Shown: piece by piece, positions 2,968 to 60,972 of the stretch
Position numbering within the stretch: the first letter of the stretch is position 1
Layout: every line of letters begins with the position of its first letter
Assembly (NCBI GenBank): GCA_041737595.1
Contig: JBGSRK010000010.1
Coordinates: 117,375 to 181,374, forward strand
Length of the DNA: 64,000 nucleotides
DNA from: Patescibacteria group bacterium
GTDB taxonomy: Bacteria; Patescibacteriota; CPR2; UBA1875
Reading direction: 5' to 3'
The notes under the pieces: model-generated
What the model saw: only the letters and a program-made list of their open reading frames with translations
The model's database searches: none
What the model was told of the DNA's origin: nothing
Translations under genes and position numbers: made by a program

Positions 2968-2994
2968 AAATTAATTTATTTTATTATAACAATT

Positions 2995-39952: not shown

Positions 39953-40751
39953 TTATATCCCTCAAAAAGCAAAGGTTGTTGAGAGAGAAAGTCTTTCACC
40001 TGATTGTTTAGGATTAAAAATTAGATTCCCAAAAAATTATCAATTTAACTTCCACCCGGGCCAATTTGTAATGGTTTCTGTTCCCGGTTTTTCTGAAGTT
40101 CCAATAGGCATTACTACGGCCCCAGATAAAAATGATTTTGAAATCGGTGTAAGATCAGCTGGGACGGTTACTAAAAAGATTGTATCTCTTATGGTTGGAG
40201 ATGATATATATATTAATGGCCCTTTTGGGAATGGATTTCCATTACAAAAAATGAAGGGTAAAAATATTGTAATTATTGCAGCGGGCATTGGTATATTCCC
40301 ACTTAGATCGCTAATCAGATATTTAGGTAATAATAAAAAAATATTCAAATCTTTAACTATATTTGTTGGTTCAAAATGTCCAGAAAGTCTAATATATAAA
40401 AAAGAATATAAAGAATGGGAAAAATTTGCAAAAGTTTATACTACCGTTGATAGTTGTGGCCCAACATGGGACGGCTGTATTGGAAATATTACTACACTCT
40501 TTGATAAAAATAAGATTAATAAAGGTTCATTAATGATTGCGTGTGGTCCTCCTATTATTTATAAATCAATTATTAATCGTTATGTTGGTAAATCTATTGC
40601 AGAAAATGATTTATATTTCATGCTTGAGCGTAAAATGAAATGTGGAGTTGGGAAATGCCAACACTGTACCTGTGGAGAATTATATGTTTGTACAGACGGC
40701 CCAGTTTTTTCTTATGACCAAATCAAATATAATACCGAGGCATTATCATGA
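39939..40751 (+). CDS. hydG: Group 3b hydrogenase gamma subunit (FAD/NAD(P)-binding, 2Fe-2S)
   Basis: 270 aa with a ferredoxin-NADP reductase-like fold (GQFVMVSVPG..., IAAGIGIFP) and a C-terminal CGVGKCQHCTC cluster. Confidence 0.65.
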   Translation: MKDHNYIPQKAKVVERESLSPDCLGLKIRFPKNYQFNFHPGQFVMVSVPGFSEVPIGITTAPDKNDFEIGVRSAGTVTKKIVSLMVGDDIYINGPFGNGFPLQKMKGKNIVIIAAGIGIFPLRSLIRYLGNNKKIFKSLTIFVGSKCPESLIYKKEYKEWEKFAKVYTTVDSCGPTWDGCIGNITTLFDKNKINKGSLMIACGPPIIYKSIINRYVGKSIAENDLYFMLERKMKCGVGKCQHCTCGELYVCTDGPVFSYDQIKYNTEALS

Positions 40752-41524
40752 ATAAAGTAAAAATAGCAATATTTGATTTAACAGACTGTGAAGGATGTGA
40801 ATTACAGTTTATCGCGCTAAGAGAAAAATTGTTAAAAAGAGGTAATGATTTTGAGATAACAAACTGGAGATTGGCAAATGAAATTAATTCTAATGGTCCA
40901 TTTGATGTTACTTTTATTGAGGGTTCCCCGATAGCAGAAACAGACATTGAGACATTAAAACAAGCAAGAAAAATGTCAAAGATTATTATTACTCTGGGAG
41001 CTTGCGCCGATCTTGGTGGTATGCAATCAGCTCTTCTAGAAAAAAAGAGAGAAAGAGACCTATTAGAAGTTTATGGTCCTAAATATAAAACAAATTCACT
41101 CCCTCCAAAGCCTGTTTCTTATTATGTTGATGTGGATTTACATTTGCCCGGTTGCCCTGTCAACGAAGAAGAGCTTGAAAGGCTTCTTTCTTCACTTTTT
41201 ATTGGCAAAAAGTTTTCGCCTAAAAATCATTCGGTTTGTCTCGACTGTAAGGTTGCTGGTAACCCTTGTTTATTTTTAGATGAAGGTTTTTGTTTGGGCC
41301 CCGTCACTCGAGGTGGATGCAAAGCTCCTTGCCCAGCCAATGGAATTCGTTGCTTTGGTTGTTTTGGTCCAATAGAGGCTGCTAATTTACCTGCTCTAAA
41401 AAGTGCGGGCGAAAAACATAATTCGGTTGAAAATATAGATAATACTTTAAGTTTGTTTTTTTCAAAGCAAGATGTGTATAAAGAATATAAAATATCACAG
41501 AAAAAGGGGAAAAATGTCTCATAA
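40748..41524 (+). CDS. hydD: [NiFe]-hydrogenase small (delta) subunit
   Basis: 258 aa with CEGCELQF...GACADLGGMQ...C, the Nuo 20-kDa / hydrogenase small subunit pattern. Confidence 0.75.
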   Translation: MNKVKIAIFDLTDCEGCELQFIALREKLLKRGNDFEITNWRLANEINSNGPFDVTFIEGSPIAETDIETLKQARKMSKIIITLGACADLGGMQSALLEKKRERDLLEVYGPKYKTNSLPPKPVSYYVDVDLHLPGCPVNEEELERLLSSLFIGKKFSPKNHSVCLDCKVAGNPCLFLDEGFCLGPVTRGGCKAPCPANGIRCFGCFGPIEAANLPALKSAGEKHNSVENIDNTLSLFFSKQDVYKEYKISQKKGKNVS

Positions 41525-42770
41525 TACATTAAGCCAATTCATTTCAAAAATTGAAGGGCATGGTAAATTAAAATATAATATCGCTGAATCATGTGTGAGT
41601 GTCAACATTGATGAAGGGGAGAGGCTCTTTGAACGACTAGTAATTGGTAGGAGTTATACTGAGCTTGCATTTATTACTGCAAGAATTTGCGGAGTTTGCC
41701 CAACAGCACATGCTATTGCCGCCACAAGAGCCATAGAAGATGCTTTTGGAGTTGATCTTAATGATAAAATAAATAGTTTAAGGTATGCAATTGAGGCAGG
41801 ACAAATTATACAGTCTCATGCTCTACATTTATTTTTTCTTGCTCTCCCTGATTATATTAAAGTCCAGAATGGTCTAGAATTACATGAAAAAGATCCTGGA
41901 TTATTCAAAATCGCAAGCGAACTAAAGTCTGCAGGAGATGAGGTTATAAAAGTAATTGGAGGAAGAGCTATCCATCCATTAACACCTACTGTTGGGGGAT
42001 TTACAAAAGTCCCAACCAAAAAAGAAATTGAAAAACTTATTATTAAAATAAGATCCGCCCAAAGACTTGCAATAGAAACTCTTGAAATTTTTGCCGGGCT
42101 AAAATATCCACATTTAAATAAAAAGGAAGAATATTTTTCTTTAACAAAAAATGGTTTTGTAGATATTTTAGGAGACAAATTAATGTCTACAGAGGGAGTA
42201 GAATCTGATGTTAAAAGTTATCAATATGTAATTAAAGAAATAGTTAAAAAGAACTGTACTGCAAAACATGCGCTTCATGACGGACATGGGTTTATTGTGG
42301 GAGCAACTGCCCGCGTTAATCTTATGAGCGAAGATGATTTCAACCCAAAAACTCAAAAAGCCCTAAAGATGTTGAAAATCAAACTTCCTATCACAAACAG
42401 CTTTAAAAATAACCTAGCTCAAGCAATCGAAATCTTACATTTTTGCGAAGAAATAGAAAAACAACTGACAAGCTTTATTTGGAGTAAAGATGAAAGAACT
42501 AAAGTTGGGTATAAGATTAAGGCTGGGGTTGGAGTTGGAGCAACTGAAGCCCCTAGAGGGACTTTATTCCATATGTATGAATTTGATGAAAAAGGGATTG
42601 TTATTAATTGCGATATTATCACTCCTACAGTCCAAAACCTTACCAGCCTGGAAGATGATGCTAATGAGTATTTGAAACAAAATAAATCTGTCTCTATCCC
42701 AAGACGACAAAAAGAACTTGAAATGCTAATTCGGGCATATGACCCCTGTATTACTTGTAGTGTCCATTAA
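41514..42770 (+). CDS. hydA: [NiFe]-hydrogenase large (alpha) subunit
   Basis: N-terminal RICGVCPTAH and C-terminal DPCITCSVH are the Ni-binding CxxC motifs. I take the start at MSHNTL (41514), overlapping the hydD stop, rather than the table's 41472. Confidence 0.85.
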   Translation: MSHNTLSQFISKIEGHGKLKYNIAESCVSVNIDEGERLFERLVIGRSYTELAFITARICGVCPTAHAIAATRAIEDAFGVDLNDKINSLRYAIEAGQIIQSHALHLFFLALPDYIKVQNGLELHEKDPGLFKIASELKSAGDEVIKVIGGRAIHPLTPTVGGFTKVPTKKEIEKLIIKIRSAQRLAIETLEIFAGLKYPHLNKKEEYFSLTKNGFVDILGDKLMSTEGVESDVKSYQYVIKEIVKKNCTAKHALHDGHGFIVGATARVNLMSEDDFNPKTQKALKMLKIKLPITNSFKNNLAQAIEILHFCEEIEKQLTSFIWSKDERTKVGYKIKAGVGVGATEAPRGTLFHMYEFDEKGIVINCDIITPTVQNLTSLEDDANEYLKQNKSVSIPRRQKELEMLIRAYDPCITCSVH

Positions 42771-45888: not shown

Positions 45889-47238
45889 ATGGTAGATAAA
45901 TCCAGCGCATGGCAGGCTGTATTAGGGGAACTGGAGGTCGGCTTATCGCGGGCTAATTTTACGACGTGGTTTAAAAACACCAGCCTTTCTGATTATCAAG
46001 ATGGTATTGTAATAGTTTCTGTTCCAAATATTTTTACCAAAGAATGGCTTGAGAACAAATACCATAAACAAATAGCGGATGCCCTTAGAAAGATTATTCC
46101 AGAAATTAAATCTGTAACATATCAAGTTGGCGGAAATATTGTAAAAAGTGAATCTATCACGCCTACTATCGAAGAGGTAGTAAAAATTGAAGAAAAAACC
46201 CTTCCTGAATCTTTTGGTGATCTAAACCAAAAATATACTTTTGAAAGCTTTGTCCCTGGGGATAATTCTAAGCTTGCATTTGCAGCAGCTCAATCTGTTG
46301 CAAACAATCCAGGAGAAGAATATAATCCTCTCTTTATTTATGGTGGAGTTGGTCTTGGAAAAACACATTTAATGCAAGCAATAGCACATGCCATATTAAA
46401 AAAAGATCCTAAGAAAAAAATTGAATATGTCTCGAGTGAAAAATTTACCTCTGATTTTGTTAATTCTTTAATGAATAAAAGTACAAATCGTTTTAAAGAT
46501 AAATATAGAAAAATTGATGTTTTATTAGTTGATGATTTACAGTTTTTAGGTGGTAAAGAACAAACTCAAGTTGAATTTTTTCATACGTTTAATGAATTAC
46601 ATCAAGCAAAAAAACAGATTATTTTAGCATCTGATAGACCACCAAGATCTATCCCTACTCTTGAGGATAGGTTGCGCTCTCGTTTTGAGTGGGGATTGAT
46701 TGTTGATATACAACCTCCTGATCTTGAAACAAGAATTGCAATTTTACAAAGAAAGGCACAATTAAGAGGAATAAATATTCCTTTAGAGGCCTTGGATTAT
46801 ATTGCTAAACAAATTCAAAATAATATTCGAGAATTAGAGGGTGCTTTAAATAGAATTTTTGCTTATTGTGAATTAAATAATACTCAACCTGATTTACCAA
46901 CTATTACAAACATTTTAGGAGGCTTACTTGCTGGTTCAAAAAGAAGAGGTGTGACTCCAAAACAAATTTTAGATAAAACAGCAGATTTTTATGATATAAG
47001 TATTGAAGAAATTACTGGTCCTAAAAGAGATAAAGATATCGTTTTACCACGTCAAGTTGCTATGTATTTAATGAGAGAAGAACTTCATTTATCATATCCT
47101 AAAATAGCAGCAGAGGTAGGTAAAAAAGACCATACAACAATTATGCACGGGGTTATTAAAATTGAAAAAGAAATTGATGCAAATGAAAGATTAAGACAAG
47201 AAATTGGTTTAGTTAGAGAAAGGTTATATATGAGGTAA
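45889..47238 (+). CDS. dnaA: Chromosomal replication initiator DnaA
   Basis: 449 aa with AAA+ Walker A GGVGLGKTHL, and a C-terminal DNA-binding helix VAMYLMREELHLSYPKIA...DHTTIMH. Confidence 0.95.
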   Translation: MVDKSSAWQAVLGELEVGLSRANFTTWFKNTSLSDYQDGIVIVSVPNIFTKEWLENKYHKQIADALRKIIPEIKSVTYQVGGNIVKSESITPTIEEVVKIEEKTLPESFGDLNQKYTFESFVPGDNSKLAFAAAQSVANNPGEEYNPLFIYGGVGLGKTHLMQAIAHAILKKDPKKKIEYVSSEKFTSDFVNSLMNKSTNRFKDKYRKIDVLLVDDLQFLGGKEQTQVEFFHTFNELHQAKKQIILASDRPPRSIPTLEDRLRSRFEWGLIVDIQPPDLETRIAILQRKAQLRGINIPLEALDYIAKQIQNNIRELEGALNRIFAYCELNNTQPDLPTITNILGGLLAGSKRRGVTPKQILDKTADFYDISIEEITGPKRDKDIVLPRQVAMYLMREELHLSYPKIAAEVGKKDHTTIMHGVIKIEKEIDANERLRQEIGLVRERLYMR

Positions 47239-47506
47239 TTAGTTAAAACTGTGTAAAAGTAGTTATTTTCTGTGGATAAAACCGATATACTGGGTACAAC
47301 TTATATAATATATAATATATAAAGAATATTATACACAGATAATAATTAATAAATCAGACTAAAAATCACAAGTAACACACATTATTAAAAACCAATTTTT
47401 TACTATTATATAAGGTAAAAATACACTTATAACCAATATCCACAAAGTATATAGTAATAATAATTAATTTAATAAAAGAAATATATTATTAAAAGAAGGA
47501 GATTAA
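47239..47506. other. Probable oriC: AT-rich dnaA-dnaN intergenic region with DnaA boxes
   Basis: 268 bp at more than 80% AT. It has a perfect DnaA box tgtggataa (47271..47279) and tatccacaa (47437..47445). Confidence 0.65.
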
Positions 47507-48607
47507 ATGAAAATATCTTGTTTACAAGAAAATCTAAATAAAGGGGTAACAACTGTTTCTAGGCTTGTTTCTATTAAAGGAACATTAGAAATACTTTCAC
47601 ATATTTTAATATCTACAGAGAATGGAAGATTAAAATTATCAGCTACTAATTTAGAAATGGGAATAAATTATAAAGTTGGTGCAAAAATTGAAAAAGAAGG
47701 TTCAATAACCGTACCAGCAAAACTTTTTTCTGAATTAATTTCACAATTACCATTAGGAAAAATTGATTTAGAAGAAAAAGATGAAACTTTATATGCAAAA
47801 ATTGATGGATTTAACTCTCAAATAAAAGGTTTATCTTCAGAAGAATTTCCTTTGATTCCAAAAATTAAAGAGAAAAAAATCATTTCAGTAACAGCTGGTG
47901 AACTTAAAGATGCAATCCAGATGGTTTTCTTTTCTGCTGCACCTGATGAAACAAGGCCAGTGCTTTCTGGTATTTATTTTAAAGTTGAAAAATTAAAAAT
48001 TTATTTAGCTTCTACAGATTCTTATAGATTATCTGAAAAAATAATTAATTTAAAAGAAAAAGAAACTTCTATAAAAGAAATTATTATTCCTGCAAAAACA
48101 ATGATTGAATTATCACGTGTTTTAGATGACCCTGAAAAAATAGTTAATATATATATAAATGAAACACAAATAATGTTTGAAACAGATGATTTTGAAATAA
48201 CATCAAGATTAATAGAAGGTAAATTCCCGGATTATAAACAAATTATACCGACCGGAGCAGAAACAAAAGCAGTTTTAGATAAAGATAAATTTTTAAGTGT
48301 TATAAAAGTAGCATCACTTTTTTCTAGAGATACTGCTGGTAGTATTACTTTAAATTTTTCAACAAAAGGAAAAATAGAAGTAATTGCTTCTGGTTCTCAA
48401 TATGGTGAAACAGATTCAACTTGTGATGCCGAAGTAACTGGAAAAGATTCTGACATTATATTTAATAGTAAATATATATTAGATGTCTTAAATAATTTAC
48501 CATCAGGGAATATTACACTTGAAATATCAGGTAAATTAAACCCGGGTGTACTAAAAAAAGAAGGCGACAAAGATTACACATATGTGATTATGCCTCTAAG
48601 GGCTTAA
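47507..48607 (+). CDS. dnaN: DNA polymerase III beta sliding clamp
   Basis: 366 aa with a three-domain clamp pattern (MKISCLQENLNKGV...). Strong RBS aaggagattaaATG. Confidence 0.9.
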   Translation: MKISCLQENLNKGVTTVSRLVSIKGTLEILSHILISTENGRLKLSATNLEMGINYKVGAKIEKEGSITVPAKLFSELISQLPLGKIDLEEKDETLYAKIDGFNSQIKGLSSEEFPLIPKIKEKKIISVTAGELKDAIQMVFFSAAPDETRPVLSGIYFKVEKLKIYLASTDSYRLSEKIINLKEKETSIKEIIIPAKTMIELSRVLDDPEKIVNIYINETQIMFETDDFEITSRLIEGKFPDYKQIIPTGAETKAVLDKDKFLSVIKVASLFSRDTAGSITLNFSTKGKIEVIASGSQYGETDSTCDAEVTGKDSDIIFNSKYILDVLNNLPSGNITLEISGKLNPGVLKKEGDKDYTYVIMPLRA

Positions 48608-48608
48608 A

Positions 48609-49688
48609 TTGAAAATTAAAGAAATTAAACTTACTAATTTTCGTAATTGGGAAGAAGATTCTTTTAATTTTTCTGATAGAGTTTTAATTTATGGTCCAAA
48701 TGCACAAGGGAAAACAAATATACTAGAAGCACTCTATTTAATTGCAACAACCAGTTCTTTTAGAGGCAGGGATGCAGAAGTTATTACAAAAGATAAAGAC
48801 TTTATGCGTCTTTGCGCTAAAATTGAAAAAGAAAAGGAAATAGAAGTTAGTGCGGTTTACCAAAAAATCGAAAATGGAATACAAAAAGAATTTGTAATAA
48901 ATAATAAAAAGAGGCCTTCTATAGATTTTGTTGGAGAATTTTCAGCAATTATTTTTTCACCAGAAGATATTGCCTTAATTTCTGGAACCCCGGAAATTAA
49001 AAGAAGATATCTTTCTTTTACAATAGGACAAAAGGATAGAGAATACCTTTATGATCTTTTGAATTATAAAAAAGTATTAAGACAACGGAACGATTTATTA
49101 AAACGCTGGGACATAGGAATAATAAGAGCAGAAATAGATATTTGGGATATAAAACTTGCTGAATATGGCCAAAATATAATTATAAAAAGAAAAGAATTAG
49201 AAGAATTCATTAATACAAAAATAAGTTATTATTATCGTGAAATATCCAGAGAAGATAAAGAAATAAAATTTATTTATGAACCATCACTAGAAAAAGATGA
49301 TCTACTCAAATCATTAACAGAGAATAGAGAACGGGACATAAGAGAAAAATCCACCACAAACGGTCCACACCGCGACAGCTGGACGATTACCATCAATGGA
49401 GTATCATCGGCCAAATTTGCATCTAGAGGTGAAGCCAGGACCGTTATACTGGCTCTTAAATTATGTGAAAGAGATTGGTTCTTAGAAAAAGGCGGGGATG
49501 AGCCGGTTATACTCTTGGACGATGTTTTTTCTGAGCTTGATGAAGATCGTAGAAAATATCTGGTTGATGCTTTCTTGGGTTCACAACTTATTATCACAAC
49601 AACAGACCTAGAACATTTAGATAAAGAATTTATTTCAGAAACTCAATTAATTAATATTAAAAAAGAAGAACCCTTTATTATTTCTTAA
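48609..49688 (+). CDS. recF: DNA replication and repair protein RecF
   Basis: 359 aa with Walker A GPNAQGKTNILEA, an SMC-like signature, and LLDDVFSELD. Confidence 0.9.
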   Translation: MKIKEIKLTNFRNWEEDSFNFSDRVLIYGPNAQGKTNILEALYLIATTSSFRGRDAEVITKDKDFMRLCAKIEKEKEIEVSAVYQKIENGIQKEFVINNKKRPSIDFVGEFSAIIFSPEDIALISGTPEIKRRYLSFTIGQKDREYLYDLLNYKKVLRQRNDLLKRWDIGIIRAEIDIWDIKLAEYGQNIIIKRKELEEFINTKISYYYREISREDKEIKFIYEPSLEKDDLLKSLTENRERDIREKSTTNGPHRDSWTITINGVSSAKFASRGEARTVILALKLCERDWFLEKGGDEPVILLDDVFSELDEDRRKYLVDAFLGSQLIITTTDLEHLDKEFISETQLINIKKEEPFIIS

Positions 49689-49708: not shown

Positions 49709-49975
49709 ATGGGTAATTTAGGAAATATATTAAAAAACAAAATAGAAGAACTTGGAATTTCAAAACAAGTTGAAGCGGTTGATATTGTAGAGCGCGCAAC
49801 TAAAGAAATTGCAAAATTTATTCCAGCAGAAGACTTTGAAGTTGTTAGTTTTAATAAGGGAATAATAAAAATAGCAGTAAAATCATCTTCAGTAGCCAAT
49901 GAAATATTATTTTTAAAACCAAAAATTATTATTTTAAAAACTAATAAGCTTAAAATAAATCAAATAAACCATTAA
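49709..49975 (+). CDS. DUF721 (DciA-like) small protein following recF
   Basis: 88 aa. Its position after recF and its pattern (..QVEAVDIVERA...VVSFNKGIIKIAVKSSSVANEI) fit DUF721. Confidence 0.45.
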   Translation: MGNLGNILKNKIEELGISKQVEAVDIVERATKEIAKFIPAEDFEVVSFNKGIIKIAVKSSSVANEILFLKPKIIILKTNKLKINQINH

Positions 49976-50661
49976 ACTGGTACTTCACTGATAATTACAT
50001 TTTCTGGATTAGCCCCAACAGATGTGAGCCAGTCTTTTATTAGTTCATTTATTACAGAAATAGGTTTTTTGTTTGAATATTGGACCTGAATCTCGGTTGT
50101 ACCATTACGATTTTCAAATGCATGTACGATAGTAAAAAAATCTTTTTCTATTGGAATATCTTTAACAAATTCGAACCCTTCCACATAGCCTTCTTCGAAT
50201 TGGTCAGTTCTTTCTGTGTCTAACCTTTCTAGATAGGGGCTTATTTCATCTAAATTATTTAACTCTCTTGTTATAAATAATATTTCTAGACCCCTCCCCT
50301 TTATACCAGTAATACCAATCGGGAATATTAGTAATTTGTATTCCGTATTAGGAAAAAGTTTTTGGCCCTCTTTACTCTTAATTTTTAATATTTTCCCATC
50401 AGAAAAGCCAATAAGTTCATTTTTAACACCAATTTTATCTGAAAATAATTGAATATTATTAATTTGATTAGAGTTTATTTTTTTACTAAAAGTTAGATTA
50501 ATATTGGGCTCAAGTGAAACATTCTTACTCCCATTTTCTGGTTCGACAGCCACGATTTTTGGCGGAGAAATATATACAACAACTCCAACAATAATAACCC
50601 AAAACAATAAAGCCAAAACCGCTATAAGTATAAATTTATTATTTTTATAAGAATCATTCAT
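49972..50661 (-). CDS. Membrane-anchored protein with Ig-like domain (possible VirB8-like component of the adjacent T4SS module)
   Basis: 229 aa with an N-terminal TM and PKIVAVEPENGSKNVSLEPNINLTF, a bacterial Ig-like segment. The stop abuts the CHAP gene start. Confidence 0.35.
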   Translation of the reverse strand: MNDSYKNNKFILIAVLALLFWVIIVGVVVYISPPKIVAVEPENGSKNVSLEPNINLTFSKKINSNQINNIQLFSDKIGVKNELIGFSDGKILKIKSKEGQKLFPNTEYKLLIFPIGITGIKGRGLEILFITRELNNLDEISPYLERLDTERTDQFEEGYVEGFEFVKDIPIEKDFFTIVHAFENRNGTTEIQVQYSNKKPISVINELIKDWLTSVGANPENVIISEVPV

Positions 50662-51768
50662 TTAATACCTCGTTAAACTGCCGACATTTGTCCACCTGCT
50701 GCGTCCATAGTCTCTATAACTATTTTTTTCTACACATGTTCCAGAATTTCCCTCTATAGTATAAAGGGTTGTCCCAACAATTTTCCAAACAATTCCCACA
50801 TGACCCGTTCCACCGCTTCTTGGAGCATAAACAATATCTCCTGCCTGCGGGACTACAACATCTATATCATATTCATATGGCATTGATTTATAAGAAAGAA
50901 GTGCACCACAAGTTTTGGGAATATTAGAGCCAGCTTTATTATACACCCAACTGACAAAGGCAGCACACCAAGGTGCTCCACAGGCGCAACCTGCATATAA
51001 TTGATATTTACATACTGGGCCATAATTTTGTTGACTGCCAGTACCGCAAACCGGTAAATTTGCCTCTACCAGTGCAATATCAACAATCATCCCCTTTACG
51101 CCACTTGGACTGCCCGGAGTAGTTGGCGGCGCCACAACAGTTGGCGGCGCGGTTCCCCCTCCTACACCAGTCGGGACTGGACTCCCAATAAATCCAATAA
51201 TTCCCGAGACAACAAACCCGACTAAAATTAAAACAAGAATAATCGCGATAACTACTAAAATCGCCCAACCAATGGGATTACTAACTAAAAAAGCAATAGC
51301 GCCTCCACCCTCTGTTGCAGCTGTAGCTGTTTCTGCCGCTTCAACAGCAACTTCTGTTGCTTCTAGGGCTGCTTCTGCTGCTTCGGCAGCTTCTGCTATC
51401 TCACCAGCCTCACCCCCTAATTCACCAAGCTCACCAGCCTCACCTAACTCTCCTGTTTCTCCTAGTTCACCGCCCTCAGCTCCTTCACCGCCCTCAGGTC
51501 CTTCATTAGTTTCATTAGATTCAGAATTTTTTTCTTTATCATTTTCGGTTTCATTTTTTTCTTTATCTTCTTTATCTTCTTTTTTGTCTTCCTTGTTGTC
51601 CTCTTTTTCTTTTTTCTCTCTTTCGTTGTCATTGTCCCGATCATCATCATCATCTTCTTCATCATCATCATCAAATTCATCATCAAATTCATCATCCTCA
51701 AAATCATCTAAATAATCTTTATCTGGGTCAAAGTCTGGATCATAAAAATTTGGGCTAGCCTGTGCCAT
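50662..51768 (-). CDS. CHAP-domain peptidoglycan hydrolase with acidic low-complexity N-terminus and TM anchor (VirB1/PrgK-like)
   Basis: 368 aa. A D/E-rich N-terminus and (G-E-[LA]) repeats precede TM IAFLVSNPIGWAILVVIAIILVLILVGFVV. The C-terminal CHAP domain has Cys (CGAPWCAAFVSWVY) and His (GHVGIV). Confidence 0.7.
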   Translation of the reverse strand: MAQASPNFYDPDFDPDKDYLDDFEDDEFDDEFDDDDEEDDDDDRDNDNEREKKEKEDNKEDKKEDKEDKEKNETENDKEKNSESNETNEGPEGGEGAEGGELGETGELGEAGELGELGGEAGEIAEAAEAAEAALEATEVAVEAAETATAATEGGGAIAFLVSNPIGWAILVVIAIILVLILVGFVVSGIIGFIGSPVPTGVGGGTAPPTVVAPPTTPGSPSGVKGMIVDIALVEANLPVCGTGSQQNYGPVCKYQLYAGCACGAPWCAAFVSWVYNKAGSNIPKTCGALLSYKSMPYEYDIDVVVPQAGDIVYAPRSGGTGHVGIVWKIVGTTLYTIEGNSGTCVEKNSYRDYGRSRWTNVGSLTRY

Positions 51769-53536
51769 TATTGCTTTCCTCTAATCTGTTTAATTGTTCA
51801 GGGTTTGTTGTAATTAATATATCCTCTGCATAAGACGGAGTTATTTCAATCGCAGCATGATCTTGTCCTGCAAAAAACAATCCTTCGCCGACTTCACAAT
51901 TAAGTAAGAAAAATTTTTCTGCTTGAGTTAAGTTAAAAGCCTCTACAACCATGTCAACTGCAGACGGATGTTGTTTTAATAAAATACTCATTGATGAATT
52001 ACTAATAATAGCTTTGCCATAATTAGAACCCAAAAAATCTTCTACATCTTGGACTATAGTTGTTATTCCTAAATAATACTTTCTTGCTCTTTTTGCCATA
52101 GAAAAAAGAAATTGAGCTGAATCTCGATATTTCATTAATATCCAAGCTTCATCAACCGCTAAAATCCTTTTTTTACGAGAACCTTTTATTCTATTCCAAA
52201 TAAAGTTTAAAACCATATACATTACCATTGGCCTTAGTTCGTCCTCAAGGTCTCGTATAGAGAAAACAATAAATCTATTATCAAGGCTTATATTTGATCT
52301 TCTATTAAAAATACCAGCAAAAGTTCCACTAACAAATTTACTTAAAGATGAGTTTAGTGTTTCAGCTCCTTTTAAGGATGAAAGTATTTTTATTAAATCA
52401 TCCATAATAGGGGGTTCTAGCCCGTGGGTAGATGGGTCTTTTGTGATACCCCTTGATGCATAACATTGAACTAGGGCTTGATCTAGCAGATTATCTTCAA
52501 CGGGCGATATTTTCCCTCCAGCCATTATTCTTAACAATCCATGTAAAAGAATAATATTTGATCTTAAGCTATTACCTGCATCTTCTGGATCATCTGGGTC
52601 TACCACCGGTAAATCAAATGGGTTAATAACATATTCAGAATTAATATTTAAGTTTAGATATGAACCTCCCACTGCCTTACAAAGCCGTTCATATTCGTTT
52701 TCTGGATCTATTACAAGTACTTCTGTCCCGGTTATCAAATATCTTAAGAGTTCTAGTTTTACCGAATAACTTTTCCCAGAGCCAGACTTTGCGAGTATTA
52801 CAGAATTTGCATTTTCCAAACCAAAACGATCAAAGAATATAAGCCCATTTGTGTGCTTATTTAAGCCATAAAGTATCCCATCATTTCTAGACATATTACT
52901 TGAAGCAAATGGGAAAAATGTTGAAAGTGCACCAGTATCAAGATTTTTTGAAACCATTAAGTCATCTTTACCATAAGGGAAAGAGACATTTAGCCCTTGT
53001 TCTTGTTGGAAAATAGCAGGCTTCATCATAATTAAGGACCCACCTAAAAGATTTTCTAGTACCTTTGTTAATGATTCTAGCTCTTCTTTAGATGAAGCAA
53101 AAATTGTGAAGTACAAAGATGCTTTAAATAATTTTGCTTCACCTCTTTGGAGTGAATCTCTAAGATCTTCTACATCAAAATGAGCCGTTTCTAAAAGAGG
53201 ATCACGAACCTTACCTTTTACCTGATTCTCATAAACTTGAGATTCGATTTGAGCAGATTTGTTTCTTAATTTTTTTAAAGTATCTTGTGTTTCAACAGGA
53301 TAAATAAACAAAGAAGTATTAAGTGAAAAATCTATATTAACAACAGGTGAAAGCCAATCGGTGTATAGAACTCTTGGGTAAGCATAAACAAAAAAAGTTC
53401 TTACATAATATGTTCCAAGTTGGATATAACTTGATTCAACCGAAATTGCTGAAGGGGAAATAATATCTATTATTGATGTTCCTCCTTCACTTATTATTTT
53501 TTGATCATTGTTTTTATTATTATTAAAAATGTTCAT
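51755..53536 (-). CDS. VirB4/TrsE/PrgJ-like type IV secretion ATPase, C-terminal two-thirds
   Basis: 593 aa with YVRTFFVYAYPRVL, Walker A AKSGSGKSYS, Walker B ILAVDEAW, and a C-terminal VirB4 motif. Confidence 0.85.
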   Translation of the reverse strand: MNIFNNNKNNDQKIISEGGTSIIDIISPSAISVESSYIQLGTYYVRTFFVYAYPRVLYTDWLSPVVNIDFSLNTSLFIYPVETQDTLKKLRNKSAQIESQVYENQVKGKVRDPLLETAHFDVEDLRDSLQRGEAKLFKASLYFTIFASSKEELESLTKVLENLLGGSLIMMKPAIFQQEQGLNVSFPYGKDDLMVSKNLDTGALSTFFPFASSNMSRNDGILYGLNKHTNGLIFFDRFGLENANSVILAKSGSGKSYSVKLELLRYLITGTEVLVIDPENEYERLCKAVGGSYLNLNINSEYVINPFDLPVVDPDDPEDAGNSLRSNIILLHGLLRIMAGGKISPVEDNLLDQALVQCYASRGITKDPSTHGLEPPIMDDLIKILSSLKGAETLNSSLSKFVSGTFAGIFNRRSNISLDNRFIVFSIRDLEDELRPMVMYMVLNFIWNRIKGSRKKRILAVDEAWILMKYRDSAQFLFSMAKRARKYYLGITTIVQDVEDFLGSNYGKAIISNSSMSILLKQHPSAVDMVVEAFNLTQAEKFFLLNCEVGEGLFFAGQDHAAIEITPSYAEDILITTNPEQLNRLEESNNGTG

Positions 53537-53539
53537 TTT

Positions 53540-54196
53540 TTATTTTCCTGTAACCATGTCACCGCTTATGGAATTTATGGCATTCCCAATCTTAATATTT
53601 GTTGCAATATCGGGGTTGTAAAGAATATAAATTAAATCTGCAATTTGTTCAGTATTTAATACTTTTCCCGTAAGTCCCATAGACGTTACTCCATTAACAA
53701 TTTGTTCTATTCTGGCCATTAAACCTTTTTTATTTTCCTCAAATTCAGACATGGGGTTTGTTTTTGAACCAAAAAACCCACCTTTATTTAAATTAACAGG
53801 GTAAAAAGACACAACTATATAAAACTCCTTATCCATAATATTTGCCTGTGTAAGTAACATTTCTATAAATGTTTTATATTCTTCTGCCTGGATTTTTATA
53901 AAGGGGCTTTGCTCAGCTCCAATTATTGTTTCTAACTTAGTTAAATAATCAGTTAAATCTAATTTTCTTGAAACAGAAAGTATTTGAATTGGGAATTCTA
54001 TTGAATTTAAAAAGGATTGGTATGCATAAGAAACAGATTCTTTTTCCGTTTCACTTTTTAAAGATAAATTAATCGAAGAAATAGAAACAATAGAACGGAG
54101 ACTTCCGTCCTTCATAATTATTACACCCTCCTTAATATCCTTTATTGGGACAATATTTTGGCTAGGTGCAGAAGATTTTTTATTCCCCTGTGACAT
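53540..54196 (-). CDS. VirB4-like N-terminal domain encoded as a separate ORF (split gene or pseudogene fragment)
   Basis: 218 aa. IVPIKDIKEGVIIMKDGSLRSIVSISSINLSLKSETEKESVSYAYQSFLNSIEFPIQI is the typical N-terminus of Gram-positive VirB4 homologs. It is separated from the ATPase ORF by a single TAA. Confidence 0.6.
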   Translation of the reverse strand: MSQGNKKSSAPSQNIVPIKDIKEGVIIMKDGSLRSIVSISSINLSLKSETEKESVSYAYQSFLNSIEFPIQILSVSRKLDLTDYLTKLETIIGAEQSPFIKIQAEEYKTFIEMLLTQANIMDKEFYIVVSFYPVNLNKGGFFGSKTNPMSEFEENKKGLMARIEQIVNGVTSMGLTGKVLNTEQIADLIYILYNPDIATNIKIGNAINSISGDMVTGK

Positions 54197-54234
54197 ATAA
54201 TAAGTTTAACAGATTATCGCACTTGTTTTAATAT

Positions 54235-54828
54235 CTAATTTCTTCGTCTTCTTTTAATTTCAATTTGAGGATTGTCAAAATTTTGTTTTGGAGATACGCT
54301 AGCAAGCTGCGAAAGAAGGGGTTCGGCATCTTTTTTTGAATTAACAGTACTGTTAATTGTACTATCTAAAAAACTATTTTTTTCCATTATTGGGTCCGGG
54401 GCTCCCGGATAATCAAAATTAGATTTATCAGAAACCCTAGCTGCGTTTTTTAATTTCTCCTGTATTTGTTCTAGACTTTCTCGTTTAACGGCTCGAGGAG
54501 TTTCTTCTCTTTTGTTCGGTTCTGTTTGTTCTATTTTTTCAGCCTCTCTTTTCCAAACCATTTTACGAGGATTAATGTATGAACCAATAGCATCAATAAT
54601 AATTTTTTCTAGGTGTTGACCGCCATAATCAAAAAAAGCTAATCCAAGTGCTCCTGCAATAATTATCATAGAAAAAAGATAAAAGAAAAATCTAATGGGC
54701 CCGTATAGTGCAAAATTTAATACAATAATTAGTCCAACCCCAATTAAGATTATAATAAATTGCCTAAGCGTTAATGGCCCGACAACCTTATCTTCTATAT
54801 CTATATTTTGTGGGACTTTGTATTCCAT
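54235..54828 (-). CDS. VirB3/PrgI-like small membrane protein
   Basis: 197 aa with two N-terminal TM helices after LTLRQFIIILIGVGL. It is positioned between the VirB6-like and VirB4 genes. Confidence 0.5.
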   Translation of the reverse strand: MEYKVPQNIDIEDKVVGPLTLRQFIIILIGVGLIIVLNFALYGPIRFFFYLFSMIIIAGALGLAFFDYGGQHLEKIIIDAIGSYINPRKMVWKREAEKIEQTEPNKREETPRAVKRESLEQIQEKLKNAARVSDKSNFDYPGAPDPIMEKNSFLDSTINSTVNSKKDAEPLLSQLASVSPKQNFDNPQIEIKRRRRN

Positions 54829-54840
54829 AATATTAAAATA

Positions 54841-56751
54841 TTATTTAAACTTAGGGTCATTAATTGTGTCTTGACTAGTACCGGGTCCCATTGAGGCTGC
54901 CATTTTAGACCTTGCTTCTCTGCTATCATTTGTAGCACGTTCACTCCAATTGCGCGCATTCTTTGGATCTGCAAAATAATCTACATAATGGTTTTGAGCT
55001 TCTGCGGCCCATTGTTGTTCACCATCCCAATTGCCCGCAGCATCAATAACGTCTGCCATTTTGCCAGACATATTAATAGGGTTAACCTTGTCAATCTCTG
55101 CCTTAGCCATTTTGCGGGCATTTCTAATGGTTTTTGCTTGAGCTGCAACTGTTCCACCTTCGCCCTCCATTGCAGTTAATTGAGCTTCTGACATATTTAT
55201 TCTTGCACTTTGATCAGTGTCTTTGGCAATATCAAGTGCATAATCTTTTACCATAGAAGATAGCCCTGCACTGTGGCCGTTTTTTAATAACATATTCCTT
55301 AAATCGCCATTTTCTGGTCCTTTTAATGCGGCCGGGTTATCTTTGTGAACTAATCTTAATAGTGCTATTTCTTCATTCTCACTTAAATTACCCTTCCTAA
55401 GAAGTTCAACCATTTCCTCATAACCCTTACCTTCATGTATTTCTGAAAATGCACCTTGCTGTTGCTGATTAAATCTATTTTGAGCGCTCTTATCTTCTTC
55501 TGTCCCAATAAGTTTATCAAGCCCCAATAATCTTCTCCCAAGTGGATTATTTTCATTGGCAAGCATTCTACCGGTCTTGGCGCGTCGAAGCGTTCTATTG
55601 CGAGCTGCTTTATCTTTCCATCCTTGAGACATCAATCCTAGTCCGGATTTATCAGATGCGTAACCAAGCGCCGCCCCCTTGGCCACCCCACCTATTTTTG
55701 AAAGAACTCCCCCAATTCCAGCCGTAACTGCCCCTCCGTTTTTTATTGGAATAGCAAATGCCATAAAAAATGCAACACAAAGCATCAAAGAAGCCATTAT
55801 AAAGTCATTTATCCCAGAAAATGCCATTATCGCCGAACCAATAAATAAAATAGCCATAATTTGGATTCCCATAAGACCCCACTTAAAAAATTCAGACCAC
55901 CACTTTTTGTATAAACTTTCAGTGAAAGGCAAAAGATTTGCAAGAGCCGCTAACGGTGAAATTACAATTAATAGATAAAGCATAAAAACTCTTACTCCCA
56001 GAAGAATCCAAAGCCCAATTGCAGGGAAAAGTATGATTATAGAAACGATTACGGCTAGCACAAGATTAATAACTGCCGTCGCAGTCCCAATTCCGGAAGT
56101 TGCAGCTACCCCCATATCTCTAAATGGTTTATACCAATCCCCGCCAGGGATAACAACATTATATATATTATCCACTAACATGTTTTCTATAGCACTAAAA
56201 AAACCAAGCAAGAAATCCGCAATAGCATAACTGAAAAGAGCTAAAAATAGAGTAACGACTAATTTTGGTATAATCTTCCCTAGCCCATATTTATCTCTTT
56301 GAAGGTTTAAGATATTCATTACGGCAATAATGATTATTGCTACTGAAAGTAGCCCTAATCCCAAATCTCTAAAATGAGTCCAAACTCGCTCCATGCTTCC
56401 ACTGTAAGTTGGGCTATAGGTAAGATTATTTCCCCAATCAAGAGCAGTTTTTATTGCAAAAATACAAAAACTAGAAACCCCGCCAAGTATCGCCCTACCA
56501 ATATCGGTAATAAAATTATTAATCAGCCCTGTGATACATAGTGACCATTGCCAAGGGAGAAGACTACCGCATTCTGGTGGGGTTGTGGTTGGGATTGGGG
56601 TGGGTGGAGTATATGTTGGGACGGTGTATGTTGGTGAAGCTCCTCCTCCAGGGCCAACAGAAGCAGCTCTCAAACTAACAGGAATAAATAAGCTCTGGGA
56701 CATAAATAGCGCCAGAGTCAAACTGATAATTATTTTTTTAAACACCCTCAT
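54841..56751 (-). CDS. VirB6/TrbL-like polytopic membrane protein with Pro/Thr-rich N-terminal stalk
   Basis: 636 aa with a signal peptide, PTYTVPTYTPPTPIPTTTPP, more than 6 TM helices, and a hydrophilic C-terminal 250-aa domain. Confidence 0.5.
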   Translation of the reverse strand: MRVFKKIIISLTLALFMSQSLFIPVSLRAASVGPGGGASPTYTVPTYTPPTPIPTTTPPECGSLLPWQWSLCITGLINNFITDIGRAILGGVSSFCIFAIKTALDWGNNLTYSPTYSGSMERVWTHFRDLGLGLLSVAIIIIAVMNILNLQRDKYGLGKIIPKLVVTLFLALFSYAIADFLLGFFSAIENMLVDNIYNVVIPGGDWYKPFRDMGVAATSGIGTATAVINLVLAVIVSIIILFPAIGLWILLGVRVFMLYLLIVISPLAALANLLPFTESLYKKWWSEFFKWGLMGIQIMAILFIGSAIMAFSGINDFIMASLMLCVAFFMAFAIPIKNGGAVTAGIGGVLSKIGGVAKGAALGYASDKSGLGLMSQGWKDKAARNRTLRRAKTGRMLANENNPLGRRLLGLDKLIGTEEDKSAQNRFNQQQQGAFSEIHEGKGYEEMVELLRKGNLSENEEIALLRLVHKDNPAALKGPENGDLRNMLLKNGHSAGLSSMVKDYALDIAKDTDQSARINMSEAQLTAMEGEGGTVAAQAKTIRNARKMAKAEIDKVNPINMSGKMADVIDAAGNWDGEQQWAAEAQNHYVDYFADPKNARNWSERATNDSREARSKMAASMGPGTSQDTINDPKFK

Positions 56752-56831
56752 AACTCTATTATATATTTAAGTTGTTATTACGCAATAAAAAAAATACCAA
56801 ATAACTTTAGTATTTTTTTATTTTTTAAAAT

Positions 56832-57143
56832 TTACGCAGTGGCGATTGTTTTTGCCCAGTTTAAGATAACAAGAGCCAAAACAACAACAATTACACCGAT
56901 GACTGCATTTAAGATAGCTGTTCTTGCTTCAGACGCTTTTCCAGAATCTCCTTGAGCTAAAATATATTTAACACCTGCATATACTATATATGCAACTGCA
57001 ATAGCTCCAACAAACCAAAGAATATATTCAAATATTCTTATAATTGTTGCCTTTGGGTCTCCTGCACCACTGGCTAGAGTGATGTTTAAGTCACCTGAAC
57101 TGATTGCAATCTTAGTCCCCATGGCTAATAATTTTTCGTTCAT
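56832..57143 (-). CDS. VirB2/TrbC-like pilin paralog 4
   Basis: 103 aa. Two hydrophobic helices flank GDSGKASEAR. Paralog of the three genes upstream. Confidence 0.45.
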   Translation of the reverse strand: MNEKLLAMGTKIAISSGDLNITLASGAGDPKATIIRIFEYILWFVGAIAVAYIVYAGVKYILAQGDSGKASEARTAILNAVIGVIVVVLALVILNWAKTIATA

Positions 57144-57194
57144 AATTCCTCCTTCTTAATAAATGATATTAATTTTATCTGAATAAGTCAACTT

Positions 57195-57509
57195 TTATAT
57201 TAATACTTCTCCCCAAAAACTAGATACCCAGTTTATAATTACAGCAGATATGCCGATTAAAACAACTCCAATTACAGATATTAAAATAATTTTTCTTGCT
57301 TCGGCAGCTTTCCCCGCGTCTCCTTCGGCCATAATATATTTAACCCCCCCATATATAATTGAACCAAGCCCAACCCCAACTAAAATAGGCACTAATAGGT
57401 TGTTTAAATATTTAAAAACCAAATCTTGAATACTACTACCTCCATACACGGCCGAACCTGGGAGAGTGACTGTAGCAAAATTAGTTATATTTTTTACATA
57501 TTTTTTCAT
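57195..57509 (-). CDS. VirB2/TrbC-like pilin paralog 3
   Basis: 104 aa with ...GGVKYIMAEGDAGKAAEARKIILISVIGVVLIG... Confidence 0.45.
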   Translation of the reverse strand: MKKYVKNITNFATVTLPGSAVYGGSSIQDLVFKYLNNLLVPILVGVGLGSIIYGGVKYIMAEGDAGKAAEARKIILISVIGVVLIGISAVIINWVSSFWGEVLI

Positions 57510-57513
57510 AATA

Positions 57514-57846
57514 TTAACTCGTGATACTTATAAATGTGCTAATAATAAATCCCGACGCAATAATTATTGAAAGTCCGACAAGAGAGGCGATTATTATTTT
57601 TCTCGCTTCAGTAACCTTATTTTGATCACCACCAGACATAAATAATTTGAATATACCCCAGAAAAACATTGAGACTGCTATTGCCCCAACAGCTCCAATT
57701 GCTATATTTTTTACTATGTTAACAAAAATAATTAAATCACTCGCGGTAGCGGGGTTTGGACCATTTAACCAACTAAAAATACCAGCTGCATTTACTGCTT
57801 TTGGTGTTATTAAATAATGAATTATTTCTATTAATGCCATATACAT
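57514..57846 (-). CDS. VirB2/TrbC-like pilin paralog 2
   Basis: 110 aa with ...FKLFMSGGDQNKVTEARKIIIASLVGLSIII... Confidence 0.45.
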   Translation of the reverse strand: MYMALIEIIHYLITPKAVNAAGIFSWLNGPNPATASDLIIFVNIVKNIAIGAVGAIAVSMFFWGIFKLFMSGGDQNKVTEARKIIIASLVGLSIIIASGFIISTFISITS

Positions 57847-58229
57847 GATGCCAGGGTATTTATCCCTAAAAAATTATAGATTAAAAAATAAGAAAATAAA
57901 AGCAACCCAAGGCCTGAAAGTACACCATAAATATACTCTTTTGCTTTGTCTATTTTATTTGTGTCACCAGCAGAAGTCATCCATAGATATCCAGCAAAAA
58001 TAAGTACAAGAGTAGCAACGGGGATTAAAAGTCCAGATATCCATTGCCAGACACTACAAATCCAACAATCATAATCCATAGAACCCGAAATACCACTACG
58101 ACATGATTCCCAGGGATCTCCCGGCGCAGCGAAAGCAATCTTTGCATAAAGGTTTAATAAGAAAGAGTATAATAATATTTTTTTCAATTTCATCTCTTTT
58201 ATAATATATAAGAAAAAATCTTTTCTCAA
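57831..58229 (-). CDS. VirB2/TrbC-like pilin paralog 1 with Cys-rich N-terminal extension
   Basis: 132 aa with a signal peptide ...AKIAFA/APGDP, five Cys in the N-terminal region, then ...MTSAGDTNKIDKAKEYIYGVLSGLG... Confidence 0.45.
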   Translation of the reverse strand: MRKDFFLYIIKEMKLKKILLYSFLLNLYAKIAFAAPGDPWESCRSGISGSMDYDCWICSVWQWISGLLIPVATLVLIFAGYLWMTSAGDTNKIDKAKEYIYGVLSGLGLLLFSYFLIYNFLGINTLASCIWH

Positions 58230-58256: not shown

Positions 58257-58742
58257 ATGACACTTTCATGGGACCTATTTGTACTTCTTTTTACCGGAAT
58301 TATTGTTGTATATTCTATTCTTTTAGGTAGAAATAGAATAGTCGGTATTCTTATAAATATATATATTTCTCTTGCTGTAACATTAGTTGTTGGTGATGCG
58401 GTTTATAATTTAGTTTCTAATTTTACAATTATCTCGAATAGATTTTCCGTAACTGAATTTGCCGTAAAAACAATATTCCTAGTAACCGTCACGGCTCTAC
58501 TTTCAATTAAAAGTGAAATCGCTGGACTTGATAGTGGAGGATCAGTATCAAAAATTCAAGCAGGCATTTATGGGTTTTTGACTTCTGGTTTTATTCTTTC
58601 TACAATCTTTTCATTTATGGCTGATTCGCAAATAATTGCCCTTGATTCAAATTTTGTAAATTTAATAGTAAGTTTTTATATGGTACTTGTTGTTGCCCCA
58701 ATATTATTTATGATTGGAACTGCATTTACTAAAAAGTTCTAA
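58257..58742 (+). CDS. CvpA-family-like small membrane protein
   Basis: 161 aa with 4-5 TM helices. The N-terminal DLFVLLFTGIIVVYSILLGRNRIVG resembles Colicin_V/CvpA. Confidence 0.4.
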   Translation: MTLSWDLFVLLFTGIIVVYSILLGRNRIVGILINIYISLAVTLVVGDAVYNLVSNFTIISNRFSVTEFAVKTIFLVTVTALLSIKSEIAGLDSGGSVSKIQAGIYGFLTSGFILSTIFSFMADSQIIALDSNFVNLIVSFYMVLVVAPILFMIGTAFTKKF

Positions 58743-60576: not shown

Positions 60577-60972
60577 TTATATATGTTTAGTTCTTATGCT
60601 TACATTATAATGTTCTTTTGTCACTCTTTTGTCAAGCGAACGGATTCTCGAAACAACCATTTTATCAAGTAATGAAAGTCGATTTTCTGTTTGTTTATAC
60701 GAATAATAACTTATTGAATTACCACTATATAAAAGATCGAGATAATATCTTGCTTCAAAAATTGAATTTCTTACATCTGAAAAATATCTCATTTTATCTT
60801 CATCAAAATCTCTTGCTTGTCCTTCAAAAACTGCAACAGGAATTTTAGATACAATTTGACGTAAAGAAATAGCCGCACTTTTGTTTTTTTTAGCTCTTCC
60901 TGAGACTCTAAAAACTATCATTACAAGTTCGTGTGCTTTTTTCTTTAATTGTTGTTCTATATATTCTCTCAT
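60577..60972 (-). CDS. Four-helix-bundle protein (23S rRNA intervening-sequence protein family)
   Basis: 131 aa. KKAHELVMIVFRV...EARYYLDLLYS fits the PF05635 pattern. It lies between lexA and recA. Confidence 0.55.
   Translation of the reverse strand: MREYIEQQLKKKAHELVMIVFRVSGRAKKNKSAAISLRQIVSKIPVAVFEGQARDFDEDKMRYFSDVRNSIFEARYYLDLLYSGNSISYYSYKQTENRLSLLDKMVVSRIRSLDKRVTKEHYNVSIRTKHI

Follow-up and report, generated by a model that had tools for sequence, protein, structure and literature searches.

We analysed a 64,000-nucleotide stretch (hereafter the window) of the genome of a Patescibacteria group bacterium (lineage CPR2; UBA1875; assembly GCA_041737595.1, contig JBGSRK010000010.1, positions 117,375 to 181,374). 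Four consecutive genes on its minus strand, at 56832-58229, encode small proteins whose family membership and gene context support their assignment as VirB2-type pilins of a conjugation-derived chromosomal type IV secretion system (T4SS) typical of the ultra-small Patescibacteria. We consider it rather probable that these pilins are specialised subunits that assemble together into one structure. The genes were named pil1 to pil4, counting from the downstream end of the array, with pil4 transcribed first. On the minus strand, pil4 lies at 57831..58193, pil3 at 57514..57846, pil2 at 57195..57509 (104 aa) and pil1 at 56832..57143 (103 aa). The frames of pil4 and pil3 share 16 nt; a gap of 4 nt then precedes pil2, and one of 51 nt precedes pil1. 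The list of open reading frames (ORFs) gives the lengths of the four products as 103, 104, 110 and 132 aa, and the original prediction used the same values. The first two of these lengths stand. The 132-aa version of pil4 is only the mechanical TTG-to-stop ORF (57831-58229). The true start of pil4 is almost certainly the ATG at 58193, which gives a 120-aa product, because the NCBI and Logan gene calls record 120 aa and the TTG falls in a promoter-like hexamer. The 110 aa of pil3 are probably 108 aa, counted from the second ATG, since the orthologue in a related strain begins MALT.

The four proteins are related to each other. In pairwise BLASTP comparisons, pil1 matches pil2 with an E-value of 2e-16 and pil3 with 4e-7, pil2 matches pil3 with 5e-7, and pil3 matches pil4 with 2e-7. 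The pil1-pil4 pair is weaker (E ~1e-4), and the pil2-pil4 pair is not significant (E ~0.07-0.1). Overall, the other copies are 19-32% identical to pil1, and over the hairpin pil2 is 49-55% identical to it. The alignment columns G65, D66, K69, A73, I77 and G83 are invariant in all four pilins. Judging by these sequence comparisons, the pilins are genuine paralogs and not a chance pattern. The predicted four tandem paralogous genes, with their exact coordinates, were thus borne out by BLASTP, by the invariant columns and by the match of all four to the family PF18895. The loops read AQGDSGKASEAR in pil1, AEGDAGKAAEAR in pil2, SGGDQNKVTEAR in pil3 and SAGDTNKIDKAKE in pil4, and they have the pattern GD..K...(E/K)A(R/K) in common. 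A conserved loop had been predicted and was found, but the proposed motif GDxGKAxEAR fits only pil1 and pil2; pil3 reads GDQNKVTEAR.

Using a scan with the PF18895 (T4SS_pilin) model, we found that pil1 to pil4 score 49.3, 31.9, 26.7 and 30.0 bits. All of them pass the gathering threshold of 26.6, pil3 barely. The best match is that of pil1 (E 5e-13), and in each pilin the match spans the profile from positions ~6-13 to 70-71 of 71. With the TrbC/VirB2 model PF04956 (threshold 27.9 bits), pil4 passes at 28.6, pil2 stays below at 15.3, and the scan gave no match for pil1 and pil3. A word-indexed homologue search with pil1 alone returned a single match, and a profile built from the four paralogs was required to gather 43 family members, 23 of which also match TrbC/VirB2 at E <= 0.01. 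To compare the families directly, six annotated plasmid VirB2/TrbC proteins of the MPF-T type were collected by tblastn with VirB2 and aligned as a reference. The hhalign comparison of the candidate phyla radiation (CPR) pilin family with these six proteins gave an E-value of 5e-5 and a probability of 67% over 66 columns. The alignment is in register from the mature VirB2 start through helix 1, the loop and helix 2 (residues 52-118), and the CPR loop is ~7 residues longer than that of the plasmid proteins. These matches, together with the T4SS genes next to the array, uphold the predicted VirB2/TrbC identity. An exhaustive profile search returned 57,222 representative clusters at E <= 0.001; therefore, the pilin family is very large. 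Searching the PDB by sequence and by profile gave no relevant structure related to the pilins. Fold comparison had been suggested as a check. It does not decide the matter, since a two-helix hairpin also resembles thousands of unrelated helical hairpins and singles out no pilin.

The predicted architecture of two hydrophobic helices flanking a loop was confirmed for all four pilins. Hydropathy shows two hydrophobic segments per pilin, one on each side of the polar loop, and the proteins have the two-helix hairpin with a short polar loop and the ~70-120 residues of VirB2-type pilins. AlphaFold models place the hairpin helices at residues 30-62 and 67-102 of pil1 and at residues 41-72 and 78-109 of pil4. 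In both models the helices are ~32 residues long and separated by a turn of 4-5 residues, with a per-residue confidence (pLDDT) of 82-94 within the hairpin. An N-terminal leader had been predicted for each copy. We judged the leaders by eye. In pil4, the leader looks like a canonical Sec signal peptide, MKLKKILLYSFLLNLYAKIAFA|APGD, ending AFA|AP, and pil3 has a candidate cleavage site VNA|AG. The N-termini of pil1 and pil2 are short and weakly hydrophobic, and this is conserved in the orthologues P0164 and P0009. Apparently, a recognisable cleavable leader is limited to pil4 and perhaps pil3. One copy had also been credited with an extension carrying five cysteines; in the 120-aa numbering, pil4 has four (C31, C43, C46 and C117). 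Its segment before the first transmembrane (TM) helix is rich in Cys and Trp and includes C31, C43 and C46, whereas Cys117 is C-terminal. This N-terminal segment is presumably extracellular and exposed, and the extra cysteines of pil4, 46 and 117, could connect the N-terminal with the C-terminal tail.

The pilin genes head a run of ten co-directional genes with gaps of -16 to 80 nt (-14 to 80 nt downstream of the pilins), and such tightly packed genes fit one operon. All of the genes described next lie on the minus strand. The gene after pil1 (54841..56751) encodes a polytopic membrane protein of 636 aa with a signal or anchor segment, at least five further hydrophobic segments and a hydrophilic C-terminus of ~300 aa. 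Neither this protein nor its homologue P0197 has a Pfam or NCBIfam match; a precomputed PF19590 tag exists, but the Pfam and NCBIfam scans did not reproduce it. In 31 related loci, homologues of this protein stand directly upstream of PrgI. Thus, by its position and topology, we infer a VirB6-like role for it. It is followed by a PrgI family (VirB3-like) protein with two TM segments (54235..54828; PF12666, 50.8 bits against a threshold of 27). A TrsD-like protein (53540..54196) corresponds to the N-terminal domain of VirB4 as a separate gene: it has sub-cut-off matches to NF045975 VirB4_plasma (E 3e-12), whose N-terminal part it covers, and to NF041427 TrsD (E 2e-7). The VirB4-type ATPase (51755..53536) is of the monoderm, MPF-FATA-like kind (NF045971, CD1110 family, 360.5 bits against 325; PF19044 TraG P-loop, E 3e-27). 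Its gene lies 3.3 kb downstream of the pilins, with the PrgI and TrsD-like genes in between. Searching genomes for relatives of this VirB4 gave 565, and the best 80 of the 565 are almost all labelled Patescibacteria. Among these 80, the closest are from uncultured Patescibacteria: UBA1875 (68%) and STE_72 (66%), followed by Howlettbacteria, CPR2 and Saccharibacteria (53-60%), of which the Howlettbacteria and CPR2 genomes reach ~58-60%.

The last two genes of the operon encode a cell-wall hydrolase of the CHAP type with a VirB1-like role (50662..51768; PF05257, 41.2 bits) and a membrane-anchored protein with an Ig-like Big_5 domain and an N-terminal hydrophobic anchor (49972..50661; PF13205, 39.9 bits). 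The hydrolase consists of an acidic N-terminus, one TM segment and a C-terminal CHAP domain. Its N-terminal ~150 aa are extremely acidic and of low complexity, with D/E runs and repeated GE/AE, and the order of acidic region, single TM segment and catalytic domain is an unusual layout for a VirB1-type enzyme. The operon (49972-58229) is transcribed towards a dnaA-dnaN-recF cluster on the plus strand (45889-49688), which lies within 300 nt of it; all three genes fall within 4 kb. Published Patescibacteria T4SS loci are often close to the replication origin too. The opposite flank carries recA, a Trp-repressor-like gene and lexA. A scan of 30 larger ORFs of the window (at least ~280 aa, outside the operon) found neither a relaxase nor a coupling protein. 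The locus therefore combines a monoderm VirB4, a separate TrsD, a PrgI/VirB3 protein and a protein that is VirB6-like by position and topology, in a chromosomal setting with no relaxase nearby, as is characteristic of Patescibacteria-type T4SSs.

We also assessed signals that could set the expression of the individual pilins. A promoter-like site, TTGAGA-17-TATTAT (58201..58229, minus strand), lies ahead of the pil4 ATG at 58193; it agrees with the consensus at 10 of 12 positions, and its TTG is the start of the mechanical ORF. A second site, TTGACT-17-TATCAT (57163..57191, minus strand), lies in the 51-nt gap ahead of pil1. It also agrees at 10 of 12 positions and is joint best on the strand. 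Just past the pil1 stop codon, an A/U-rich hairpin of 14 bp followed by a U run (56788..56819, minus strand; inverted repeat I5, 93% complementary, 4-nt loop) folds with -15.2 kcal/mol (z -1.9), and 6 of 200 shuffled sequences were equally stable. The terminator scan did not call this hairpin, because its stem is too poor in G+C. It is possible that it acts as a partial terminator that raises pil1 mRNA relative to the downstream genes. Among the genes of the operon, only pil1 has a canonical Shine-Dalgarno sequence, AAGGAGG. A search of the locus for structured RNA gave no Rfam matches.

To find out how the copies evolve, we compared them with one related strain (sample SRR7589087, L088 and L089), which is ~82-84% identical at the nucleotide level with dS ~0.8. 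The ratio of non-synonymous to synonymous substitution rates (dN/dS) is 0.01 for pil1 (98% amino acid identity; 2 non-synonymous against 38 synonymous differences), 0.06 for pil4 (91%), 0.14 for pil3 (81%) and 0.11 for pil2, of which 64 codons could be compared (80%). For the VirB6-like gene, dN/dS is 0.22 at 63% identity. The pilins are under strong purifying selection, tighter than that on their VirB6-like neighbour. Therefore, the diversifying selection for which a test had been proposed was not found in this comparison. The VirB6-position protein evolves much faster than the pilins (63% against 80-98% amino acid identity), and its ~300-aa hydrophilic C-terminal half and Pro/Thr-rich N-terminal segment could be the lineage-specific part of the secretion machine.

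No DNA repeats common to the paralogs were found in the array. Thus, nothing supports cassette recombination or recent duplication, and we rejected recent duplication or gene conversion as the origin of the copies. The copies instead correspond by position between genomes. The closest locus, L002, is uninformative on pilins: it contains masked runs of N and ends before any array. The best cross-genome matches of pil4 are the first array genes of the loci L003, L005 and L010 (73.9, 57.8 and 52.0 bits), with which it forms a separate reciprocal-best-hit cluster; by these matches, pil4 belongs to a distinct "leader" pilin class. The best match of pil3 is the third pilin of L003, and that of pil1 is the last gene of the L003 array. 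Since nearly all pilins fell into one group in single-linkage clustering of reciprocal best hits, we used a matrix of best-hit positions. Over 12 six-gene arrays of Saccharimonadales, this matrix is strongly diagonal: for each position, 63-110 of 132 comparisons have their best match at that position of the other array. According to these matches, the paralogs are ancient and positionally conserved. In 24 of the 80 related loci, arrays of 2-9 pilin genes flank VirB4, and several other loci are incomplete.

In some genomes, neighbouring pilins are joined. Adjacent pilins are fused in one ORF at positions 1+2 in L059:2248-3078(-) and L073:2454-3284(-), and at positions 2+3 in L076:821-1507(-); the two-module pilin ORFs of Saccharibacteria genomes are such fusions of adjacent array positions. 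There are also "polypilins" with 3-16 hairpin modules per chain, for example P0045 (501 aa, 6 modules), P0051 (395 aa, 4 modules) and P0064 (1775 aa, 16 modules). Multi-module proteins make up nearly all of the 150 best-scoring matches to the paralog profile. Modules fused in one chain are made together and lie side by side in the membrane. A term search of the survey of Patescibacteria pilins (PMC12102498) found no mention of pilin fusions.

Purifying selection, the lack of repeats, positional orthology and the fusions favour specialised subunits over interchangeable variants. We propose the following scheme. Each pilin would sit in the cytoplasmic membrane as a hairpin whose charged GD..K..A(R/K) loop faces the cytoplasm and whose two ends lie outside. 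The pil4 protein would enter the membrane via its cleaved Sec signal peptide, and pil1-3 via short uncleaved or atypical leaders. The signal peptide fixes the topology of pil4, whereas that of pil1-3 is assumed by homology. The VirB4 ATPase, PrgI and the VirB6-like protein would then extract hairpins from the membrane pool and polymerise them into one pilus-like tube or conduit through the wall, while the CHAP hydrolase would open the peptidoglycan. In this scheme, pil1 would be the abundant major subunit, the Cys/Trp-rich product of the conserved first gene pil4 would be a minor initiating or tip subunit, and pil2 and pil3 would be further minor subunits. That pil1 is the major subunit is likely, since it has the sole canonical Shine-Dalgarno sequence, its own promoter-like site and the 3' hairpin, and is the most conserved; the initiating or tip role of pil4 is plausible. 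The structure probably serves contact-dependent exchange with a host cell, by protein export or uptake of host molecules, and not conjugation, because the larger ORFs of the window include neither a relaxase nor a coupling protein. The original prediction had offered two explanations for the multiplicity of the copies, and the one with major and minor pilins fits better.

Several points weigh against this reading. The filaments solved from a cultured Saccharibacterium are the unrelated Pam pilus (bioRxiv 10.64898/2026.03.03.709456), and monoderm T4SSs are generally without a pilus (PMC12857230). There is no published filament made of PF18895-type pilins, and the same review calls a pilus a possibility; in the known cases, VirB2-type pili are extracellular polymers with bound phospholipid. 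The hhalign probability is no more than 67%, and the VirB6 assignment comes without support from a hidden Markov model. For pil1-3, which have no clear signal peptide, the topology is presumed from homology with pil4. The selection estimate comes from one strain pair and short genes, one of which, pil2, is partial. The hairpin 3' of pil1 is weak (z -1.9). Promoter-like sites in the region are no commoner than the shuffled expectation and are therefore weak evidence alone. Finally, the scan for a relaxase or coupling protein covered only those ORFs of at least ~280 aa that lie in the window.

The main rival explanation is that the pilins build no extracellular pilus but a short stalk or channel ring of the T4SS, embedded in the membrane or spanning the wall, in which the paralogs and the multi-module fusions make up a hetero-oligomeric ring like fused c-subunits of rotary ATPases. 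We consider this rather unlikely, but it has several points in its favour. Monoderm T4SSs lack pili (PMC12857230), and fusions of 2-16 hairpins are easier to reconcile with a closed ring or a structure of fixed length than with an open-ended helical polymer. Such a pilus has not yet been seen, the filaments described in bioRxiv 10.64898/2026.03.03.709456 being different ones, and the hairpin fold itself does not discriminate between the two. However, the family is homologous to the pilus-forming VirB2/TrbC proteins, and the signals for high expression of pil1 suggest a large demand for this subunit, as in a polymer. Since VirB2 of known systems is required for both the channel and the pilus, the two readings are compatible.

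The other explanation offered in the original prediction was that the paralogs are interchangeable variants of one pilin that serve antigenic or host-range variation, as has been proposed for the VirB2 arrays of Bartonella and Anaplasma. The copies are indeed very divergent (19-32% to pil1), their N-terminal and presumably exposed regions differ most, and array size varies from 2 to 9 genes across lineages. The survey PMC12102498 also raises this idea for Patescibacteria arrays, with a mean within-array identity of 25%. We nevertheless regard it as quite unlikely. With dN/dS values of 0.01-0.14, every copy is under stronger constraint than the VirB6-like gene; there are no shared DNA repeats for recombination or gene conversion, and the features of a cassette system are absent; and array positions are orthologous between genomes. 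The fusion of neighbouring copies in some genomes forces their co-expression and co-assembly. The copies also appear to lie in one operon with overlapping or nearly abutting frames, which would make it difficult to switch them individually. In Bartonella (TrwL of the Trw system) and Anaplasma phagocytophilum, diverged VirB2 copies also stand side by side, in T4SSs used for host interaction and not for conjugation, and those arrays are read as a means of varying the surface, either to bind host cells or to evade immunity. In contrast, the copies described here are ancient, positionally conserved and under purifying selection, and they belong to a monoderm-type system.

It is very improbable that these are unrelated small two-TM proteins resembling pilins (holins, toxin/immunity pairs or bacteriocin-like peptides): ~100-aa hairpins with two TM segments are very common and the fold searches return only generic helical hairpins, but all four proteins exceed the curated PF18895 threshold, none has a PHROGs match at E <= 0.01, and dozens of genomes contain the family together with VirB4. 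The holin alternative, which the original prediction had named as its possible refutation, was rejected together with a phage origin: there is no PHROGs match, and neither an endolysin, another phage gene nor a lysis-cassette context was identified among the neighbouring genes scanned, the CHAP hydrolase being part of the T4SS cluster.

Pilin arrays of this architecture have already been published; therefore, the array of the window is one more example of a kind that is already known. Both the T4SS genes and the pilin array (SEML1_0006-0019) are essential to Southlakia epibionticum, a Saccharibacterium without a recognisable coupling protein or relaxase (Wang et al. 2023, PMC10633639). A survey that applied the two Pfam models PF18895 and PF04956 to 3,035 genomes reported 1,948 assemblies with VirB2-like pilins and, in 383 assemblies, 441 arrays, each with 2-11 pilin genes; mean identity within arrays was 25%, the loci are often near dnaA, and a separate TrsD is widespread (Quinonero-Coronel et al. 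2025, PMC12102498). A 2025 review considers the Patescibacteria systems unique among monoderms in their potential for conjugative pili (PMC12857230), and the function of Patescibacteria T4SSs has been described as completely unknown (PMC11665869). The array of the window is like the published ones (PMC10633639, PMC12102498) in its PF18895 family, in its tandem diverged paralogs (four here) with a within-array identity of ~25%, and in its chromosomal locus near dnaA, with TrsD, PrgI/VirB3, a VirB6-like protein and VirB4 and no relaxase or coupling protein nearby. It differs in orientation: the array here immediately precedes the genes from VirB6-like to VirB4 and points in the same direction as these, whereas in Saccharimonadales loci it lies upstream on the opposite strand. 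It has four genes and not six, and no obvious Sec signal peptide is present in three of the four products. Its pilins show no one-to-one correspondence with the positional classes of Saccharimonadales, and the lineage is a different, uncultured one.

More distant systems show both likenesses and differences. The VirB2/TrbC/TraA pilins of diderms (Agrobacterium T-pilus, RP4, F) are likewise small proteins in which a leader is followed by two hydrophobic helices around a short polar loop, their gene also heads a T4SS operon, and profile methods reveal the homology. Here, however, the loop is longer and carries the GD..K..A(K/R) motif, the host is a monoderm, and no VirB5, VirB7, VirB9 or VirB10 partners and no sign of a cyclase of the TraF or TrbF type were seen. 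There are multiple paralogs in place of one gene, and the pilus is a presumed one. The integrative and conjugative elements (ICEs) of mycoplasmas, which are mobile elements carrying their own DNA-processing genes, also have a small two-TM pilin-like protein (NF045849, Mbov_0395 family) beside a monoderm-type VirB4 (Mbov_0397 family). NF045849 is matched by pil1, pil2 and pil4 at E ~1e-5, but these are not members of the family, because ~25 bits is well below its cut-off of 40; the TrsD-like and VirB4 genes here match the Mycoplasma VirB4 model. The archaeal Ced/Ted import pili (CedA1) also combine a VirB2-like hairpin pilin with a VirB4-family ATPase and no relaxase, and the VirB4 of the window weakly matches CedB (E 5e-11). 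In contrast to Ced, the system here is bacterial, and the searches gave no sequence match between its pilins and solved Ced pilins. The Ced/Ted system is used for import, whereas the one described here may serve export or uptake.

Next to the array but divergent from it, a gene at 58257-58742 (+) encodes a polytopic membrane protein of 161 aa that matches no family. In L003, the gene of an orthologue with 53% identity (2804-3304) precedes the first pilin by 6 nt and shares its strand. Since the adjacency is conserved while the orientation is inverted, this protein may be an accessory factor of the array. Between recA and lexA, at 60577-60972 (-), lies a gene of the "23S rRNA intervening-sequence protein" family (four-helix-bundle type); no rRNA gene was noticed near it, though no search for one was made. 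The other genes of the window, whose G+C content is ~31%, are ordinary chromosomal genes: glycosyltransferases, rhamnose synthesis, DnaK/DnaJ, a PilB-type ATPase and a NiFe hydrogenase. The PilB/GspE-type ATPase (30507-32120 (+); T2SSE, E 4e-104) indicates that a type IV pilus or type II secretion machinery is also present, separate from the T4SS. The homologue of the NiFe-hydrogenase large subunit (41472-42770 (+)) follows three co-directional ORFs of 258-327 aa (38969-41524 (+)), and the region 38969-42770 (+) may be a soluble hydrogenase operon in a reduced genome. A 687-aa ORF without a Pfam match (17142-19205 (-)) adjoins a predicted metallopeptidase of 719 aa (M11/reprolysin-like; 14933-17092 (-)). 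Both lie beside a polysaccharide-export and glycosyltransferase cluster and may be surface proteins.

A more specific version of the co-assembly reading is that the paralogs are obligate partners of one ordered heteropolymeric VirB2-type tube that serves as a conduit for the uptake of host nutrients, with the polypilins as its covalent versions. We consider this version unlikely. If it is true, the tube would draw nucleotides, lipids or other host molecules into an epibiont unable to make them, the system would be a T4SS mainly for nutrient import, and its VirB2 pilus the first heteromeric one. The array itself adds no new kind of system; it is a compact, co-directional four-gene version from an uncultured lineage. 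A T4SS with a pilin array is essential for the epibiotic growth of the sole genetically tested Patescibacterium. The selection, the array positions and the fusions narrow the hypotheses towards an assembly of several subunits in which pil1 dominates and pil4 is a conserved leading subunit, and away from surface variation. Thus, the comparative results give concrete targets in culturable relatives.

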